DNA of 64,000 bases from positions 86,206 to 150,205 of IMG/VR virus record IMGVR_UViG_3300043409_002109; one strand, 5' to 3'. This document shows positions 5,126-13,602 of the stretch, piece after piece; the stretch's first letter is position 1; each line of letters opens with the position of its first letter. Source of the DNA: a virus. The notes under the pieces were generated by a model. It saw nothing but the letters and a program-made list of their open reading frames with translations. It searched no databases and had not been told where the DNA came from. Made by a program: the position numbers and the translations under genes.

Positions 5126-7828
5126 TTAACCTTTATATATGTCTATAGTATCTGCAAATATTTCAATGATTGGAGCTTCTTGAGAAACTTTACCTGAGAC
5201 TTTTATTAAATCTTTTACCTCTGGTAGTGCTCGGTATTTAATAATTTGAGCATAACTTCTAGGGAATAGAATTATCTTTGCAGTTGCTGTGCCATCGCCT
5301 ATTTCTAGAATAGCCATAGGTTGGCCTTTTTTTGTTTTCATATCTCTTACTTCTATTACCATTCCGCAAACCACTGCGTTAACACCTTCAAAGACGTTAA
5401 CTAAAGCTTCTGCTTCGGAGTAGATCATTCGTGCAGGGTGTCTCCCTAAGAAGCACCCTATGTATTCTTGTTGAATCATCATTTGATGTAAGGTGATAGG
5501 TATTTTACTATGTCTCTCTAGGGTTGGCATAGTAGGAAACTCTTTTTCTTTTAAGCTAACTTTCTTTCGAAGGTTTGAAGTTGTTTCTAAGAACTCTAAC
5601 TCTTCTGCTGTAAGTTCTCTATCCTTCTTTCTTGCCTCTATCTTTTTAAGTTCAGTTCGGCGCGCGATCAAGGGCTCCAGTTCAAGATTCTCTTTTTCTC
5701 TGATTTTAATCTCTGCTTTTCTTTCATAAAATTCTTGGAGTTCTGTTTTGAAATCATAGAGTTTATGCATTTGAGCAAGTAGGTCTTGTCTGAGGTAGCC
5801 CATAGTATCGAAGGCTCCTGCATTCACTAGAGATTCAAAGACTTTGGTATTTATTTTCTGGGTATTTACTCTTTCAATGAAATCGTTAATATCTTTAAAA
5901 GGGAGTTTACCTCTAGCTGATATGATTGCTTGAGAAGCGGTCTTACCGCAAGAACGGATACCGTTCAACCCAAAATATATTTCTCCCTCGGCCACAATAT
6001 GAAAGCCAAGGTAAGATTTCTGTACTGAGGGCGGTGAGATTCTAATTCCTAATTCTCTTGCTTCAATAATATATTCAGGAGCTTTGGCGGCCCAATCTTT
6101 AGGCATCATATCTTCTGATCTTACGCTCATTAAAGAGCAAAAGAATTCAGTAGGATAGTTCGCTTTAAAGTAGGCACAGAGGTAGGAAACGTAACTGTAG
6201 GCTACGGCATGTGATTTGTTAAATAAATATTCTCCGCACCCAAGAATAATTGCCCAGAGATAATCTATCTGATGATCGTTGAGCCCATATCTTTGACAAC
6301 CTTTTTTAAAGGGCTCTGTTATAGTGGCGAGGTATTTGAGATCTTTCTTCCCTATCGCTCTTCTGGCTAAATCGGAATCAACTAGGTCTAGCCCTGCTAT
6401 TTCTACGAACAATAGCATGAGCTGTTCTTGGTAGACCAATACATTCCTTGTGTCTTTCCAAAGGGTTTGAATCGCTTCAGGTATTTCGGGATCAGGATCA
6501 TTGTTTAGATACCTATCTAGGAATCCTGCTGATGATGGCCCAGGCCGAACAAGTGATGTTATATCACTCAGCTCTCCTATACTTTTAGGCTGAGCTTGCA
6601 ATGAGGCGCGTTTGATAGAAGCTGATTCTTCGAACTGGAACACTCCAGTCAAGTGACCATCAGCAAATAATTTATAAGCTTTTGGATCTCCGTCAGGAAC
6701 AGTATAAATATCGTATACCTTATTGTGTCGCTCGCGTATAAGTTTCACACATCTCTTTAGGATATCTAAGTTCTTGATAACCAGGAAGTCGAATTTAATG
6801 AGACCTTGAGCTTCGGTATCTCCCATTTCAAACTGAGTTATTCTTTCATAGTCTTTATTTCTCCAGACAGGAACGTGATTCGCTATAGGAGTATTGTTTA
6901 TCACCATGCCAGCCGCGTGAACCCCATAGTTAGATACCATACCTTCTAACTGGTAACAGAAATCATGCCAATCTTTATATTTGCCGATAGTGAGTTCAGG
7001 TTGCTCTGGGTAATTTTTGTCTGGATTACCTTCTATGATTTCTTTGAATGTGGCTTCTTTCCCGAATAAGGGTGGCGGTATTTTTCCCAGGATTGTTTGC
7101 ATGAGACTATAATGGGTCTCTCTCTCAGCAGGGTTCTCTGGCTCGGTTAGTTTGAAGTAGCGGCGCGTTAAGCTCTTAGTCCCGAATGTTCCTTGAGTAC
7201 CTATGTTAGCTACATTGTCGCGGCCCCACTCTTCTACTATCCATTCTAGGACTTTCTCTCGACCTTCTCCATCAAAGTCCATGTCAATCGTTGTGTTTGG
7301 ATAGATCGTTATTCTATCACTCTGTATATTTCTATACAGACCAGACTATATCATCACCCTTTTCAGGGTGTCACACACTTCGACCTCACTTAAGGCCTAC
7401 TCCCGCTCCCGGGATAGTCGTTGAACCTTCAAGAATATTTCTATTCAAGCTCGGCTGCTGATTGCCCAATCCTGAAGATTATTACTCGGTGAGTACTTCA
7501 GGCTCTAAGGGGTTTCCAGCAATTCGTGTAATTTTTCGAATATCCTTTTCGGATATAAGGGACTGTGCATATCGCAATCCGGAGGACTTCCGCCAGTACT
7601 CTCTGATCGTTCCTTTTTTAGATCAATAGAATCTGTTAATCCGCTTGTATATAGCAATAAGCTATTGTAAGGATTAGCTTTAAAGAATTTATTTTCTTTA
7701 ATGCATTTAAGGATGAATTCTAGATCACTATCTTTTGCTTTCTCTAACTCGAAAGACAAGAAATCTAAATCTACTTCATCTATTCGCTCTGTATAAAGAC
7801 ACTCTTTAACCTGTTGTCTTAGGTTCAT
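5126..7828 (-). CDS. dnaE: DNA polymerase III alpha, C-terminal (catalytic) fragment; two exons 7828-7577 and 7288-5126, 804 aa spliced
   Basis: Splicing restores GGSPPD|IDMDF. Also GVHAAG, KFDFL, GVFQFE, RPGP, VYQEQ, FNKSHAVAY, HhH region and C-terminal OB fold. Confidence 0.92.
7289..7576 (-). mobile_element. group I self-splicing intron (288 nt, no homing endonuclease ORF)
   Basis: P GAAUUGCUGGAAA (7525-7513), Q AAUCAGCAGCC (7463-7453), R GUUCAACGACUA (7426-7415), S GAUGAUAUAGUCU (7355-7343). 5' exon ends GGAU and pairs with IGS GUCC through a U-G wobble; terminal G at 7289; removal is in frame. Confidence 0.93.
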
Positions 7829-7919
7829 TTAATACTCCGTGACCGGGTTGTTAACTTGCAGAAACTGCAAATTTAATTGATAATTCTTTTAGAAGACCGG
7901 GCTTGATGCCCATTACCTT

Positions 7920-8345
7920 ATGGATGAGAACATGGCTACTTATACTTCTGTTGCAAAAGTGCACCCTAGTTCGGCGCGGGTACTTTCAATTGCTGATGTT
8001 AGCGACGGCGATCGAATTGACTTTATTGAGGCCTTAGGTCGCCCAGCCAGAAAGGTCCAGTTCTACATGACTGATGCCGCTGATGAGGTAGGGTACACTC
8101 TTAACTCATTAAAGAAACTACGCACTGGACGTGAACACGAGATAGTTCTGTCTCAAGCAGAGCGATTCTTTGGAACCTACAACACAGAAGTTGTTGAGGT
8201 ATGGTCAGGGGCAGCCTCCTTTCCGAGCCTTACTAGCACTGGCGCAACTACCTTAGAAACTGCTGATGGTATTTCTATTCACAGTATTCAGATTGATTCC
8301 TTGACTCTTTCTGTTGGAACTACAATTTCAATCGTGGTGTGGTAA
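7920..8345 (+). CDS. hypothetical protein, probably virion-associated
   Basis: Small beta-rich protein leading a plus-strand pair with a Gly-rich gene. Confidence 0.6.
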   Translation: MDENMATYTSVAKVHPSSARVLSIADVSDGDRIDFIEALGRPARKVQFYMTDAADEVGYTLNSLKKLRTGREHEIVLSQAERFFGTYNTEVVEVWSGAASFPSLTSTGATTLETADGISIHSIQIDSLTLSVGTTISIVVW

Positions 8346-9301
8346 TGCCAGGGCCTATGTCTTTGAGTACGCTGCTTCGTAGTCAAATATCAACAGTATC
8401 TAATACTGTTGATACGTTAGCTGTTGATGCTGCTGAGATTATTGTAAATGACCCCTATGCTTGGGGGACCGGAGCAGATGGTAATATCTCATTAGATGGT
8501 ATAACTACTGTTACTATTGGTGGGGTAAGTCATGCACCGTCAGGAAGCACTTATACTTTGACTCGGCCTTTGAACGCTAGAGTGCTTACTATTAGCAATG
8601 GTGTAGCTTTAAATTCTTCAGGCTTCTTAGTCCATTGTTGGGAATTAGCAGGTACCGGTACTATAAAAGATCGAGGAGCTAATGCCTCTGGCGGTACAGC
8701 GGGGATGGGTCTTACTGCGAGTGGGACGACTCAAAGAACTTCTGGTAACGGTGGGGCTGGGGTATCTTCACCTGGCGCTGGTCAAGCGGGTTCAGCAATC
8801 ACTAGCGCCCTTGGTGGTGGAGGAATGTCTGGAGGCACCGCAGGTGCTAACCCTGGTGGTGGAGGGGGCTCTCCAACTGTGCCTACTGCAGCTGTAGGGT
8901 TTCCTTCTTCTTCGATCTCTACTTGGGCGTTTCTAAAAGGTGTCAATGGTACTGCTTACGCAGGTGGTTCCGGTGGTGGTTCAGGGGCTATCGCTGTTGG
9001 CGCCTCTGGAACTTCTGGTGGCGGTGGTGGCGGTGGTGGGGTGATAGGTGTATTCGCACGGAAATCAGTAAGTACCATTACGATTAACGTCGGTGGGGGT
9101 AACGGGGGGAATGGGACTTCCAGCAGTGGTCAGGTCGGTGGTGGCGGTGGTGGTGGCGGTGGGTATGTTCTTTGCGTATACAAGGATGGCGCAGCTCCCA
9201 CCATTACTGTGGGTGGCGGTACCGCTGGCTCTGCTGCTGGAGGCGCGAGCGCTGCTTCGAACGGTTCTTCTGGCAGCAGCACTGTAATACAGATGTCTTA
9301 G
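8339..9301 (+). CDS. glycine-rich tail/virion protein
   Basis: Long GGxGG runs typical of phage Gly-rich tail-associated proteins; probable start at ATG 8345. Confidence 0.7.
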   Translation: MVMPGPMSLSTLLRSQISTVSNTVDTLAVDAAEIIVNDPYAWGTGADGNISLDGITTVTIGGVSHAPSGSTYTLTRPLNARVLTISNGVALNSSGFLVHCWELAGTGTIKDRGANASGGTAGMGLTASGTTQRTSGNGGAGVSSPGAGQAGSAITSALGGGGMSGGTAGANPGGGGGSPTVPTAAVGFPSSSISTWAFLKGVNGTAYAGGSGGGSGAIAVGASGTSGGGGGGGGVIGVFARKSVSTITINVGGGNGGNGTSSSGQVGGGGGGGGGYVLCVYKDGAAPTITVGGGTAGSAAGGASAASNGSSGSSTVIQMS

Positions 9302-9330
9302 GCTGGCAGCCTATCCCCCTTATTCAGTCG

Positions 9331-10341
9331 TTATGAGGCTGCTTTAAGCATTAGTCCGTCTGCTACTGCTGATGTATCCGTGCTTATGCAATGGTATAGA
9401 TCCGTAGCGCCGCTACGGATTGTCTTACCGCTCTGGAAGGACCCCGAGGGATAGATTCCGCGCAACATTCCCATCCGGGAACCGTTAGGCGATACAGATC
9501 CGGAGTTGCGGTGGAAGGCCATAAGGTCCCCTACGAACATCCCGGCTGGAGTCGTGGTAGCTGCCACTGCAGTGCCTGCCTGCATCGTGTGCTTCCGGCC
9601 ACCCGTGTATAGGGTGGAGGTCCCCGGTTGCCACACCATCCCGTGACAGGCTCCAGCTGTGGTGCCGTGGCCAAAAGGGGCTTGTGTAGCATTCGAATTG
9701 AGCCACGCATTAGTCATGATCCCGCTTCCACCCGTAGCCCACATTCCGTAGAGTCGATCGTCTGTCTCCGCGTCAAGCCCCCCGCTTGCAGCGTTCGTCT
9801 GATGAGGCTCCACAATCGCCCCAGAGGATAACCACGCTTGTTGGGTCACGGTTGTCCCGATAAGCTGGAGGAAGATCACCTCCTCCGAGATATAGGCTCG
9901 TACCTTGGCAGTGGTACTATTCCAAGTGGTGCCCGCAGCTCTCCAGTATCCGGAGTTGGTACCGCTCGTGAAGGGTTGAGCGTTTGCCCAGTCGTTCCAC
10001 GCCCCGCGATTCTTAACGATTCCCATCAGCAAGTTAGAAGCCGTGAAGGTATCCGGGGATGCCATAGTAGGAGCAGGCGCCCCACTGTCCCCAGCCCAAA
10101 TAAGACCGGGTGATAGACCCATGCCCGTTCCTCCTGGAGGAGTAGCATAAACAGCTTTAGTAACAGCTACGACCTGTCGATTCCAGGACCAGGTATGAGT
10201 GGCTGCAAGTGCCGTTGCCCGGTAATCGTTGGCCGCTGAACAGGCGGTGTATATAGCGTCCAGGAGACCTTGAATGTCTGAGGAAGCGGGAGAGACATCG
10301 GCCATTCTATAGAATGTAAGAGATGATAGAGGGAGTGCCAT
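9331..10341 (-). CDS. putative virion structural / tail-associated protein
   Basis: Ala/Gly/Thr/Ser-rich, Lys-poor, coupled to the fibre gene, visibly higher GC. Confidence 0.55.
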   Translation of the reverse strand: MALPLSSLTFYRMADVSPASSDIQGLLDAIYTACSAANDYRATALAATHTWSWNRQVVAVTKAVYATPPGGTGMGLSPGLIWAGDSGAPAPTMASPDTFTASNLLMGIVKNRGAWNDWANAQPFTSGTNSGYWRAAGTTWNSTTAKVRAYISEEVIFLQLIGTTVTQQAWLSSGAIVEPHQTNAASGGLDAETDDRLYGMWATGGSGIMTNAWLNSNATQAPFGHGTTAGACHGMVWQPGTSTLYTGGRKHTMQAGTAVAATTTPAGMFVGDLMAFHRNSGSVSPNGSRMGMLRGIYPSGSFQSGKTIRSGATDLYHCISTDTSAVADGLMLKAAS

Positions 10342-12005
10342 TAGACGAGAGCCCCTGTGGTAGCGGCCGATCCGTTAAATCCGGTGGCCAGTTCTGGTAT
10401 TAGGACGGCTGCGATTGCCATCATGAGGAATGTCCCGACGATTGTGCTTCCAACTCGTTTAAGCACCTGACCGTCCGAGACGGCACCCATTGTAAGGCTA
10501 GTAGGGCCTGAAGTTTCTCGGATTCCTCGCACATCAGGATTGGGATAGGTACCGCCCAATTGCCCACCGGCTGCGCCGGTAGGTGTCCGGCTGTCACTCA
10601 GACGTGAATCATCACCAGCAGCAACCGTTCCTGCAGTAGTTCCAACATTCAATATCGCCGCCCCACCAAGTCCAAGTGTAGTGCGGGCCGTTGATGCGTC
10701 AGCATCATCAATCAGTGAAAGTCCGTATGCTGTAGGGGTAGTACCATTAACCCGAGTCACCGTAGCAGCTGGCCAATCACCTGTAATATCACCTGTCGAT
10801 GTTTTGGATAAGGCTGCGATAGTCCCTAGTGTGGGAAGCCCAGAAAGATCTGAATAGGCTCCGGTTGCTGCGACTGTAGCGAGTCCAAGATTCGTACGAG
10901 CCCCTGCCGCTGTACTGCTTCCAGTGCCACCATCTGCTACTGCTACGTCGGTGCCGCCAGGCCGATAGCCGGCATCGGCGTAGGTCTTGGTCGCCTTCTG
11001 CGTGGCTAGCTTAGCGTCTGAGTCGGCAGCGAGAGTACCGTCCGTGTCTACAGTGACAGATACTCCACCGATCTTGGCTACCCCGGGATTTGGATAAGTT
11101 CCAGATAGGTCTCCAGCAGCAGCTCCTGTTGGTGCACGCGAATCAGTAAAGCGTGAATCATCGCCGGCCGCCACAGTGCCTACAGTGGTTCCAACATTTA
11201 GCACGGCTGCTCCTCCAAGCCCAAGATTGGTCCGTGCAGTGGATGCACTTGCGAGGTCGGAGAGGTTGGAGGCTTTCTGCGCTGCGCCTGTAATCCGGGA
11301 GTCATCTCCTGCTGCGACCGTACCAGCGGTTGTCCCTACGTTAAGGACGGAAGCCCCGCCAAGACCGAGATTCGTTCTTGCGTCAGCAGCGCTACTAGCC
11401 CCAGTACCGCCATCTGCTATGGCTACATCTGTTGAGCCTGGGGCGTAGTAGTCTGTACCGGCGGCGGCGGCCGATAGAATGCCAGCCGCAGCCTTAACAA
11501 CCGTAGCTGTAAGACTGGACCTCTTAATAAGTTTGCCAGTTGTCCCATCAAAGATGGAAACTTCAGAATCGACAGAAGAGGAGGGGCCGACAACATCTCC
11601 ACTTCCGCCCCCGCCCCCACCTGTGGCGTTTAAGGTTGTACCACTCATAGAGAGATTAGTCCCAAGAGTTATTTCTTGTGCTACTCCGCTACCTCCACCC
11701 GCCCCTCTTCCGAGAAGTCTCTCTGCAGTAAGAGAAGTTATGGCCCCTATAGAGTGAGTGTGAGAAGCTGGAGTCTGAGGATCTGCTAAAACCCCAGATA
11801 AGCCAGTTACATCAATTTCATCGGCTCCGCCGTTTTGATGTGACGTTTTATGAGCTGCAGCTGTTGCAGCAGTAGAGATGGCAGGGATGCCATCTGCGTC
11901 AAAATAAAGATAACCCTCTTCGTCAGACCCTATCTTTTTATATTCTATTAGAGAATTCTTATAGGGAGGCGAGGTCCGTGCAGTGCTAACTTTTTGGCGG
12001 CGCAT
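10341..12005 (-). CDS. tail fibre-like repeat protein
   Basis: ARTNLGLGGA.(V/I)LNVGTT.GTVAAGDDSR x3, PG.TDVA.ADGGTG x2, GAA.G.L.GTYPNP x2, GGGSGDVVGP. Confidence 0.78.
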   Translation of the reverse strand: MRRQKVSTARTSPPYKNSLIEYKKIGSDEEGYLYFDADGIPAISTAATAAAHKTSHQNGGADEIDVTGLSGVLADPQTPASHTHSIGAITSLTAERLLGRGAGGGSGVAQEITLGTNLSMSGTTLNATGGGGGGSGDVVGPSSSVDSEVSIFDGTTGKLIKRSSLTATVVKAAAGILSAAAAGTDYYAPGSTDVAIADGGTGASSAADARTNLGLGGASVLNVGTTAGTVAAGDDSRITGAAQKASNLSDLASASTARTNLGLGGAAVLNVGTTVGTVAAGDDSRFTDSRAPTGAAAGDLSGTYPNPGVAKIGGVSVTVDTDGTLAADSDAKLATQKATKTYADAGYRPGGTDVAVADGGTGSSTAAGARTNLGLATVAATGAYSDLSGLPTLGTIAALSKTSTGDITGDWPAATVTRVNGTTPTAYGLSLIDDADASTARTTLGLGGAAILNVGTTAGTVAAGDDSRLSDSRTPTGAAGGQLGGTYPNPDVRGIRETSGPTSLTMGAVSDGQVLKRVGSTIVGTFLMMAIAAVLIPELATGFNGSAATTGALV

Positions 12006-12335
12006 TTAGGACTCGTACTCTATCTGAACTGTAGCTTGAGTGGCGACAGAGCCTTTAACGGCAACGTAAAAGGTACCACGCTTGGGATCTGAGCCCTTAG
12101 CTTCTGCGTAAATATTTTCTTCGCTGTCTAAGGGTGATGTAGTTAGGGCATATTCCAAAGGAATATCTAGATCTGATGAGGCCGAAGACGTTTCTCTGAA
12201 AGATACAGCTACGTTTCCAGGATCGTCTAAGATCGCACGTACTCGTTTTATTTGTATTTTTTTAGGTAGAATTATTTCCTCTACTGTCCAAGTAGCACCA
12301 TCTACAGATACTGTAAAGCGTTTACGTGCAATCAT
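12006..12335 (-). CDS. hypothetical protein (small, beta-rich, probably virion)
   Basis: Abuts the fibre gene; AGGA RBS. Confidence 0.6.
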   Translation of the reverse strand: MIARKRFTVSVDGATWTVEEIILPKKIQIKRVRAILDDPGNVAVSFRETSSASSDLDIPLEYALTTSPLDSEENIYAEAKGSDPKRGTFYVAVKGSVATQATVQIEYES

Positions 12336-12342
12336 CTTGTTC

Positions 12343-13602
12343 CTAACTTTGAAGCATTTCTTCTGTAAAGATTAGTGGTGTCGCAGCGCGACCTATATTT
12401 AGAAATCTACTAAATAACAAATTGTATTTTATAGGATCTACATGCGTTATGCCAAGTGCATAACATACGAGACTTCCTGCGGCTGAGCCTCGGCCTGGTC
12501 CACTTACTACATCTAATTCATCTTTAGCGTAATTAATAAACCTACTTACAATCAGGATATAATCTGAGAAACCCATTTTTTTAATTGCTTTTAATTCTAG
12601 TGTTAGTCTTTCTCGATATTCTAGAGGAGGTTTTTCTCCAAATCTTTCTGTAAGTTTTTGCTTAGAAAGTTTGGCTAAATATTCCCAGCTAGTACATTCT
12701 AAAGGCAATGGATATTTGGGGTAGTGGTTGGCTGTATCTTTGAAGTAGCTCTTATCATCTATCATATTGGCAATATGAATTGTATTTTGTAAAGCCTCCA
12801 TTGGAATTCCCTGCTCTTGGGCGCGCAACATCATCCACTCTGGAGAACCAACATGTACATCTATTTCTCCAAAAGTAAATCTCTTAGGATTATACATCGT
12901 ATCATTAGTTTGCATACACAATGCCTGTTCATGCAAGGACTTATGTTCTGGGTGAGTATAGTGCGCGTCGTTAGTAAGAATCAAGGGAAGATTTTTTTTA
13001 GCAGCAATTTCCATAAGACCTTTATTCAAAGCCTGCTGCTCCTCATCCCTATGGAGCTGTAGCTCAATAAAGAATCGATCCTTGAAGATATCGCAGTGAC
13101 CATCGATGAGGCGCTCCGCTTCATCTCTACGGTTAAGGAGAATGAGTTTACTGAATGCGCTTCCGAGACAGGCTGTAGTTGCGATGATGCCTTCGTTGTG
13201 CTCCTTGAGAAGAGCGTCATCGGCCCTTGGCTTGTAGAACATCCCTGAGGTATAGGCGTTGGAGCTGATGGCCATAAGGTTTTTCCAACCCACAGCATTT
13301 TGAGCTAATAGAACTAAATGATAGTACTTCTCCCCCATGGCATCTACTTCGCGGATAGAACGATCTTGGACGGTATAGTAAGCCTCTAAACCTAGGATAG
13401 GTTTTATACCAGTCTTCTTGCATTCTTTATAGAATTTGTATGAGCCTGCGAGGTTACCATGATCAGTGATGGCACAGCTTCTCATTCCCATTTCTTTAAT
13501 CTGAGAAGGGAGTTGGTGTATCCGATTAATCCCGTCTAATGTGGAGGTCTCGAAATGGCAATGAAGATGACAGAAAGAATCTGTATTATCTGAAGTAGTC
13601 AT
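12343..13602 (-). CDS. dnaE: DNA polymerase III alpha, N-terminal fragment (PHP domain plus start of palm)
   Basis: HLHCH..S.LDG, AITDHGN, GLEAY, HLVLLA, TACLG, TNDAHY, GPGRGSAAGSLVCYALGIT, FSRFLN; stop 14 aa after IGR. Confidence 0.93.
   Translation of the reverse strand: MTTSDNTDSFCHLHCHFETSTLDGINRIHQLPSQIKEMGMRSCAITDHGNLAGSYKFYKECKKTGIKPILGLEAYYTVQDRSIREVDAMGEKYYHLVLLAQNAVGWKNLMAISSNAYTSGMFYKPRADDALLKEHNEGIIATTACLGSAFSKLILLNRRDEAERLIDGHCDIFKDRFFIELQLHRDEEQQALNKGLMEIAAKKNLPLILTNDAHYTHPEHKSLHEQALCMQTNDTMYNPKRFTFGEIDVHVGSPEWMMLRAQEQGIPMEALQNTIHIANMIDDKSYFKDTANHYPKYPLPLECTSWEYLAKLSKQKLTERFGEKPPLEYRERLTLELKAIKKMGFSDYILIVSRFINYAKDELDVVSGPGRGSAAGSLVCYALGITHVDPIKYNLLFSRFLNIGRAATPLIFTEEMLQS

Follow-up and report, generated by a model that had tools for sequence, protein, structure and literature searches.

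The window analyzed here, 64,000 nucleotides in length, is the last 64 kb of a 150,205-bp virus record (IMG/VR IMGVR_UViG_3300043409_002109) that is rated complete by CheckV and comes from an uncultured marine phage of about 150 kb. Between positions 5126 and 13602 it encodes, on the minus strand, the α subunit of a C-family DNA polymerase III (DnaE) as two separate genes, referred to here as dnaE-N and dnaE-C and their products as the N-protein and the C-protein. The polymerase features of this locus, given in window coordinates, are as follows.

12343..13602, minus strand: dnaE-N, a 419-amino acid (aa) open reading frame (ORF) encoding PHP followed by the first palm half (helices, GS loop and FSRFLNIGR).
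12472..12501, minus strand: GPGRGSAAGS, residues 368–377, the GS (triphosphate-binding) motif of nucleotidyltransferases, present in the N-protein only.
12364..12378, minus strand: PLIFT, residues 409–413 of the N-protein, a pseudo-β2 strand aligned by phmmer to PDIDT (462–466) of Taq α.
7577..7828, minus strand: dnaE-C exon 1 (the E1 module), 84 aa, a probable decayed copy of the palm helices, ending with D84 (codon 7577–7579).
7289..7576, minus strand: predicted group I intron of 288 nt, ORF-less (Rfam RF00028, 86.8 bits with a gathering threshold of 50, E = 1.6e-21).
5126..7288, minus strand: dnaE-C exon 2, 720 aa, with the rest of the palm, thumb, fingers, helix–hairpin–helix (HhH) and oligonucleotide-binding (OB) fold, carrying D86 and D251.

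Pfam assigned residues 12–184 of the N-protein to the PHP domain (E = 3e-47) and matched the protein to positions 1–102 of the 260 positions of DNA_pol3_alpha. When compared with solved structures by phmmer, the N-protein aligned to residues 5–400 of E. coli α and 6–466 of Taq α, and the M. tuberculosis α chain was also matched. The stop codon lies at 12343–12345, and the ORF, domains and coordinates agree with the first-pass annotation, made from the DNA letters alone, which had read an N-gene at 13602–12343 containing PHP and RGSAAGS and ending shortly after FSRFLNIGR. Residue invariance was judged over 30 homologues. G368, G370, R371, G372, S373 and S377 of the GS motif are invariant, as is FxRFLNxGR (FSRFLNIGR, residues 397–405), and little or no variation is seen at H12, H14, D23, H48, E73, H95, C145, D212 and H214, nine residues that we take to be the metal ligands by analogy with other PHP domains. 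With its metal-ligand positions complete, the PHP domain of the N-protein is, as judged from its sequence, a likely proofreader. In the pseudo-strand that follows FSRFLNIGR, P409 is invariant and F412 nearly so, and L410 and F412 occupy the places of two catalytic Asp residues of single-chain DnaE.

A homologue search with the N-protein, restricted to proteins of 230–734 aa, returned 4839 significant matches, the best 120 of which were 366–483 aa long and covered 85–100% of the query; N-proteins of 410–480 aa number in the thousands in public data. For comparison at the level of loci, a set of 87 relatives was collected from IMG/VR and ENA (numbered with the prefix L), including 34 near relatives with at least 48% identity. 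Beyond the conserved PLIFxxxM, the N tails of relatives are of two kinds, being either short and ending in -PF (L001, L002, L014, L019, L024, L026, L028 and L030) or Cys/His-rich with a metal-binding look (L005, L009, L010, L011, L023 and L029); neither kind is present in the window or in L008, an independent ENA assembly with an N-protein 82% identical to that of the window. These variable tails could be partner-binding pegs.

Unlike dnaE-N, dnaE-C is not a single ORF. Exon 1, ending in GGSPPD, and exon 2, starting with IDMDFDG, together give a spliced protein of 804 aa. Pfam matched exon 2 to positions 106–259 of DNA_pol3_alpha, DNA_pol3_finger, HHH_6 and an OB fold (tRNA_anti-codon). The catalytic Asp residues were mapped by phmmer using the homologous C-protein of L027, whereby PPDVDIDF was placed on Taq 461–468 and E. 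coli 399–405, the alignment of the C-protein homologue beginning at E. coli 398 and Taq 459. D84 thus corresponds to E. coli α D401 and Taq D463, and D86 (codon 7283–7285, the second codon of exon 2) to E. coli D403 and Taq D465, whereas D251, inside IKFDF (codon 6788–6790), is the third carboxylate; their role as catalytic residues is assumed from published DnaE structures. A C-gene at 7828–5126 with three catalytic Asp residues had been proposed before; all three residues stand, D84 and D86 being now aligned to the E. coli and Taq enzymes.

The intron borders read CCGGAU/UGCG at the 5′ end and ACAACG/AUUGAC at the 3′ end, such that U ends the 5′ exon and G ends the intron, and the predicted fold scored z = −4.0 relative to shuffled controls. 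Because the codons for residue 84 and for the first residue of exon 2 are directly adjacent in the homologues of intron-less relatives, including L001–L034 and L008, the exon boundaries and the spliced 804-aa C-protein, a length that had also been given in the first-pass annotation, can be stated exactly. A start of the C-protein at the ATG at 7282, giving a 718-aa ORF, was considered and rejected: such a protein would miss both D84 and D86, so splicing of the predicted intron is required. The intron sits between the codons of two catalytic Asp residues and 1 codon from the end of the homology to the N-protein. As with group I introns of other phage DNA-metabolism genes, an ORF-less, presumably self-splicing element is inserted where the codons of the gene are most conserved, and apart from its position 1 codon from the end of N homology, nothing about this intron is unusual when compared with other group I introns.

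The presence of the intron is polymorphic, being absent from L008 and present in L018. Group I introns (RF00028, 62–90 bits) were also seen in dnaE-C of several relatives (L018:11331–11546, L002:13510–13832 and L011:14169–14497), and that of L018 occupies the position found in the window, its end directly preceding the exon-2 homologue. A second break in the C-gene, past the fingers, is seen in many relatives (e.g. L001:11897–13513, L005:5371–6984 and L009). There, the piece terminates in the N-terminal part of an intein (Pfam Intein_splicing, E about 1e-3), which makes the DnaE of these relatives a three-piece enzyme in which only one of the two breaks carries an intein. A 1283-aa collagen-repeat protein follows the C-gene piece of L001. 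In L008, a 320-aa gene with weak matches to HTH_38 and LAGLIDADG_3 (L008:17138–18100) lies between a 399-aa finger piece and a 320-aa HhH/OB piece of dnaE-C.

The break between the two genes falls between the GS (nucleotide-binding) and DxD (metal-binding) motifs of the palm; the catalytic core is therefore not on one polypeptide, and its halves are separated by 4.5 kb and five genes. All 34 near relatives share the split site, with gaps from the N stop to the C start of 250–4630 bp. Several distant lineages are split as well. An overlap of 17 nt between the two genes was seen in L040. In L008, the same five genes lie between the halves in the same order and orientation. Misassembly at the island borders, which the first-pass annotation had named as a way in which its reading could fail, is ruled out, because this independent assembly has the identical five-gene order. 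When the window was compared with L008, the last 90 aa of the N-protein were 92% identical with a ratio of nonsynonymous to synonymous substitution rates (dN/dS) of 0.03, and E1 was 79% identical with a dN/dS of 0.08, dS being saturated in both comparisons. Both polymerase halves are under strong purifying selection.

These results bear on the possibility that the locus holds a broken gene, disrupted by a recent foreign GC-rich island or joined in a chimeric assembly, in a phage that relies on the polymerase of its host. The island between the halves (7829–12342) does have a GC content of 52–59%, compared with 36–45% in the flanks, and fibre-like genes are found there amid a replication module. 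The five-gene order in L008, the presence of the split in all near relatives with gaps of very different length, and the selection on both halves all argue against a broken gene. Furthermore, GC content at third codon positions (GC3) is 0.30–0.40 in four of the five cassette genes, which is flank-like; the high GC content of the island stems from codon positions 1 and 2 in genes for proteins rich in Gly, Ala and Thr, and by codon usage the island is not foreign DNA. A broken gene is therefore the least probable of the explanations considered and can, for practical purposes, be set aside.

The E1 module was then analyzed using profile, pairwise and structure-based comparisons. It is conserved in every split relative, with the consensus DPDFLxFE...NPxNSILLYxTGLTDxFDFxKxRSxTxxGSPPD and the invariant residues E27, N52, N55, S56, G80 and D84, and lacks both the GPGRGS loop and FxRFLNxGR. 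A search of 1.84 billion representative proteins with an E1 profile, with matches counted as clusters at 50% identity, gave 109 clusters, in 107 of which the module is located at the very N-terminus of the protein. About 30 of these clusters are ORFs of only 51–125 aa, which suggests that an interruption directly after E1 is common. Alignment of the E1 family with the whole N family by hhalign placed E1 on N 312–392 (P = 1e-3), and enlarged families gave an alignment of E1 24–69 with N 333–390 (P = 7.5e-5). In a control restricted to match columns, the real score of 27.8 was not reached by any of 150 column-shuffled profiles (12.3 ± 2.0, maximum 18.1). BLASTP between the first 134 aa of the C-protein and a single-chain DnaE, that of Streptomyces phage TunaTartare, gave E = 9e-9, aligning NSIILYLTGLTD on GSLVNYVLGITD.

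A clade of fused, single-chain DnaE proteins, encoded on contigs of 39–379 kb, provided a further comparison, one that had been suggested along with the original prediction. Between FERFLNPGR and LPDVDTD, these proteins are longer by about 110 residues, and this insert is homologous to both copies, matching E1 with a probability of 93.8% (E = 1.7e-7) and N 301–391 with E = 4.9e-5; single fused inserts scored as low as E = 4e-6 against a hidden Markov model (HMM) of the canonical segment. In one such protein (P0228, 1293 aa), the E1 profile matched residues 505–588, with the canonical copy located upstream, and Pfam DNA_pol3_alpha reads through the second copy (513–790 on profile positions 15–260). 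A tree of N-parts was compatible with fused two-copy forms that are either ancestral to the split forms or derived from them. A metagenomic protein of 919 aa (P0260) starts at the palm without a PHP domain and contains a GS-bearing copy, a pseudo-strand (SLIDIQ), an E1-like copy and a full C part; it either represents a further architecture, in which the cut separates PHP from the palm, or has a wrongly called start.

Structural models were in line with a palm origin of E1. The AlphaFold2 model of a homologous 804-aa C-protein (mean predicted local distance difference test score (pLDDT) 87.5) shows E1 helices at 18–27, 30–45 and 57–62, and aligns to solved DnaEs from residue 11–23, corresponding to E. 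coli α 319–331, 70–80 residues upstream of D401. VIA-align of this model with DnaE chains gave Z scores of 20–24. A model of the fused two-copy enzyme of L052 had a pLDDT of 91.7 and a predicted template modeling score of 0.87, with 7pu7, 4iqj and 2hpi as the top Foldseek matches (E about 1e-59); this confident DnaE fold indicates that both copies can coexist in one functional-looking fold. Taken with the profile results, E1 and the canonical segment are very probably a tandem duplication of ~90–100 aa of the palm. The first-pass annotation had described a degenerate duplication at the break; this stands and can be refined, the simplest reading being that the copies decayed in a complementary manner, the N copy keeping the GS motif and losing the Asp residues (PLIFT for PDIDx) and E1 keeping the Asp and losing GS.

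From these data, we consider that the two proteins probably form one replicative polymerase of the C family, held together non-covalently around a composite active site. The N-protein would contribute, besides its PHP domain, the half of the palm that binds the nucleotide (helix, strand, GS loop, helix and FxRFLNxGR), and the C-protein, after splicing of the group I intron, would supply the metal-binding half (D84, D86 and D251), thumb, fingers, HhH and OB fold, such that a single active site would combine the GS loop of one chain with the three Asp residues of the other. The break would fall inside the old tandem duplication, whose copies would have decayed complementarily, and the gap between the genes would have become a drop-in site for cargo, occupied here by a five-gene fibre-like cassette. 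A non-covalent N:C enzyme best explains the observations because GS and FxRFLNxGR are invariant in N and lost in E1, the Asp residues are found only in C, both halves are under selection and no other polymerase was found. Regarding the last point, six-frame searches of the complete genome gave neither PolA nor PolB, and the split DnaE is therefore the sole polymerase detected. In single-chain DnaE, the PHP domain makes extensive contacts with the remainder of the enzyme, so that a surface for association would already exist. The gene structure, the intron, the conservation and selection, the homology of E1 to the palm helices and the lack of an intein are supported directly by the data, whereas the heterodimer, its shared active site and a function of E1 in keeping the two chains associated are inferred from sequence and single-chain models.

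Several observations weigh against this interpretation. Pairwise BLASTP gave no significant match between E1 and the N-protein (E = 1.4, for a match lying elsewhere), so that the pairing of the start of the C-gene with the end of the N-gene, as proposed in the first-pass annotation, was recovered by profiles and through intermediate sequences but not by pairwise comparison, and the hhalign probabilities for E1 were moderate (21–68%). When the C-protein is modeled by itself, the canonical palm-helix site is taken up by E1, and the N-protein's own helices would have to fit beside it. A clamp gene was not detected, and it is odd for a replication gene that dnaE-N lies in one block with fibre-like genes.

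The moderate hhalign probabilities would also fit E1 as an unrelated helical docking domain that had converged with the palm helices by packing on the same sheet. Single E1 sequences are also weak against the canonical-segment HMM (E = 0.026 for E1 of the window), and column shuffling removes the periodicity of helices, which makes the real score look better than it is. Convergence does not account well for a match that is collinear, always on N 301–392 and exactly upstream of the DxD strand, nor for the gradient of decay that runs through P0228 and the fused inserts. The BLASTP match to a single-chain DnaE spans an E1 helix, and the pseudo-DxD strand on the N tail is as expected if the duplicated unit had included the strand. 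Convergence is accordingly an unlikely origin for E1, if a little less so than the alternative considered next.

With respect to function, the only serious rival to a shared active site is a self-sufficient C-protein in which E1 completes its own palm, the N-protein being a separate, ε-like PHP subunit for proofreading or pyrophosphate hydrolysis that retains a vestigial half-palm as a docking piece. The position of E1 on the canonical palm helices in the C-alone AlphaFold2 model, the presence of all three Asp residues on the C-protein and the conservation of the PHP metal-ligand positions in the N-protein would all fit such an arrangement. However, E1 would have to complete the palm without the GPGRGS loop and FxRFLNxGR, and the GS loop is a hallmark of Pol-β-type nucleotidyltransferases. 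Nowhere is the N-protein more strictly conserved than in these same motifs, which lie within the last 90 aa with their high identity to L008 and low dN/dS; such conservation would be unexpected in a vestige. Self-sufficiency of the C-protein is thus judged improbable, and the composite active site remains the preferred reading.

Covalent rejoining of the two chains was also considered, whether through a split intein of cryptic or atypical type, through trans-splicing of RNA by way of the group I intron or through translational bypass. Split inteins do occur elsewhere in dnaE-C of relatives, an HNS sequence in E1 of many relatives resembles the C-terminal junction of an intein, and the intron is located 1 codon from the end of N homology. 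Nevertheless, no intein domain was detected by Pfam in the N-protein, in E1 or in the six-frame genome search (Intein_splicing, 0 matches), in line with the earlier claim that the break is intein-free, although the same Pfam model does detect intein pieces in relatives. The tail of the N-protein, 10 aa past P409, has no Cys or Ser at an intein-start position, and the E1 module is also found inside fused proteins that need no splicing. The HNS sequence was rejected as an intein junction: the His is not conserved (YNS in the window), E1 is too short and is modeled as all-helical rather than as a HINT β fold, and the module occurs in fused proteins. Trans-splicing of dnaE-N onto exon 2 was likewise rejected, given that Rfam detected no second intron-like element between 4000 and 15000, that the product would lose D84 and that most split relatives are intron-less. 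Covalent rejoining is therefore very unlikely, and two non-covalently assembled chains are favored.

The gap between the halves contains the following five genes.

12006..12335, minus strand: 109-aa gene, the first of the cassette, beginning 8 nt past the dnaE-N stop; 60% identical to its syntenic L008 homologue.
10341..12005, minus strand: 554-aa fibre-like protein with ARTNLGLG and GTVAAGDDSR repeats.
9331..10341, minus strand: 336-aa variable protein, 27% identical to the syntenic L008 gene.
8339..9301, plus strand: 320-aa Gly-rich protein, 55% identical over 282 aa to the L008 gene; GC content 0.67 at second codon positions and 0.33 at third positions.
7920..8345, plus strand: 141-aa gene, divergent from dnaE-C across a 91-nt spacer; dN/dS 0.09.

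dnaE-N and the 109-, 554- and 336-aa genes form a tight co-directional block that converges on the plus-strand 320- and 141-aa genes. The 554-aa protein matched PHROG tail-fibre families (to E = 1.9e-10), phrog_37677 (E = 1.6e-14) and, weakly, DUF5907, and its conservation relative to L008 is confined to the termini. No function could be assigned to the 109-, 141-, 320- and 336-aa proteins from Pfam, PHROGs or the ESM Atlas, and none of the five cassette ORFs matched an endonuclease family in Pfam or PHROGs. The 336-aa gene is the sole cassette gene with raised GC3 (0.56 compared with 0.30–0.41) and, with its low identity to the L008 counterpart, may have been exchanged more recently than the other cassette genes. 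The middle genes of the cassette are hypervariable between the window and L008, and in other relatives the gap is occupied by quite different small ORFs, from which the gap can be read as a cargo site.

Homologues of the 141-aa gene were found in the same place and orientation in at least eight loci (L008, L034, L011, L018, L020, L057, L009 and L023), and in L011 and L057 the gene heads an opposite-strand block of variable genes. Its product matched only viral hypothetical clusters and a weak, β-sandwich-like ESM Atlas model (pLDDT 0.53). In the spacer between dnaE-C and the 141-aa gene (7841–7900), a hairpin with a 6-bp stem (TTGCAG-AAA-CTGCAA, 7856–7870) lies between two copies of CCGGTC and is possibly an operator or a translational hairpin. 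A scan for σ70 promoters and terminators gave results at chance level.

For comparison with known systems, the whole region was searched by megablast against 50,697 phage records, which gave zero matches; tblastn against the same collection found only single-chain DnaEs of cultured phages, at no more than 43% identity, and no cultured split relative. Full-text literature searches found no description of this DnaE arrangement, by which its absence is not proven. Genes in pieces are reportedly found in T4-like phages, such as nrdA-a/nrdA-b of Aeromonas phage Aeh1, split by mobE, and a split gp43 polymerase; in these cases, an essential enzyme is said to consist of two separately translated chains that reassemble non-covalently, with other genes between them. 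Such splits are described as recent, confined to a single lineage and caused by a homing endonuclease, unlike the phage DnaE split, which is old and clade-wide, falls inside a duplication and has no endonuclease in the window.

The split-intein DnaE of cyanobacteria was reportedly described by Wu, Hu and Liu in 1998. Cyanobacterial dnaE and the marine “fractured” dnaE genes are broken at other sites, where split-intein halves rejoin the product covalently, and fractured genes carry a free-standing endonuclease besides the split-intein halves (Dassa et al. 2009, NAR 37:2560, PMC2677866). The present locus resembles fractured DnaE loci in that dnaE is in pieces and the environments are similar, and relatives carry such an intein break further downstream, but neither an intein nor an endonuclease is found at this break. 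In a survey of about 2000 bacterial genomes, only intein splits and frameshift fragments are mentioned (PMC3919608).

The closest published case found is that of the group 2.2 jumbo phages, in which a minimal Pol III α is encoded as two stand-alone proteins, one NTP-binding and one Mg2+/template-binding, that the authors predict to reconstitute one enzyme without inteins (Iyer et al. 2021, Viruses 13:63, PMC7824862). The kind of boundary is the same, with Pfam positions 1–102 on N and 106–259 on C in the present phage. The jumbo-phage version is without PHP, HhH and OB domains, its two genes are widely separated and a family B polymerase is present alongside it, whereas here the polymerase is full-size, both genes are at one locus, no PolB was found and a decayed palm duplicate is present at the break. 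The text consulted mentions no such duplicate, the comparison being one of descriptions (PMC7824862). Relative to single-chain DnaE (Taq 2HPI/3E0D, M. tuberculosis DnaE1 5LEW/7PU7 and E. coli 2HNH/5FKU), the domains and their order are the same; those enzymes have one polypeptide and one palm segment, whereas two chains, two copies and divided motifs are found here.

In the light of these comparisons, the wider proposal is that duplication and complementary decay of the palm let a polymerase be cut through its active site and yet work as a heterodimer, with the PLIF strand and the E1 helices acting as a clasp, that this enzyme is the sole replicase of a very large group of uncultured aquatic phages and that the gap is a standing landing pad for cargo; taken as a whole, this is put forward tentatively, at somewhat less than an even chance of being correct in all its parts. 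Replicative polymerases are usually viewed as single catalytic chains, and to our knowledge the known splits of dnaE are healed by inteins. If the two chains do assemble, they would provide a natural case in which duplication and complementary decay enabled gene fission inside an active site, as well as a ready two-piece DnaE for studies of palm assembly, and would explain why these proteins are automatically annotated as truncated “Pol III alpha” fragments. The use of the inter-gene gap as a cargo site would bear on how the plasticity of phage genomes is read. The phage is one of a very large uncultured group in which the nucleotide- and metal-binding motifs of the only polymerase reside on separate proteins.

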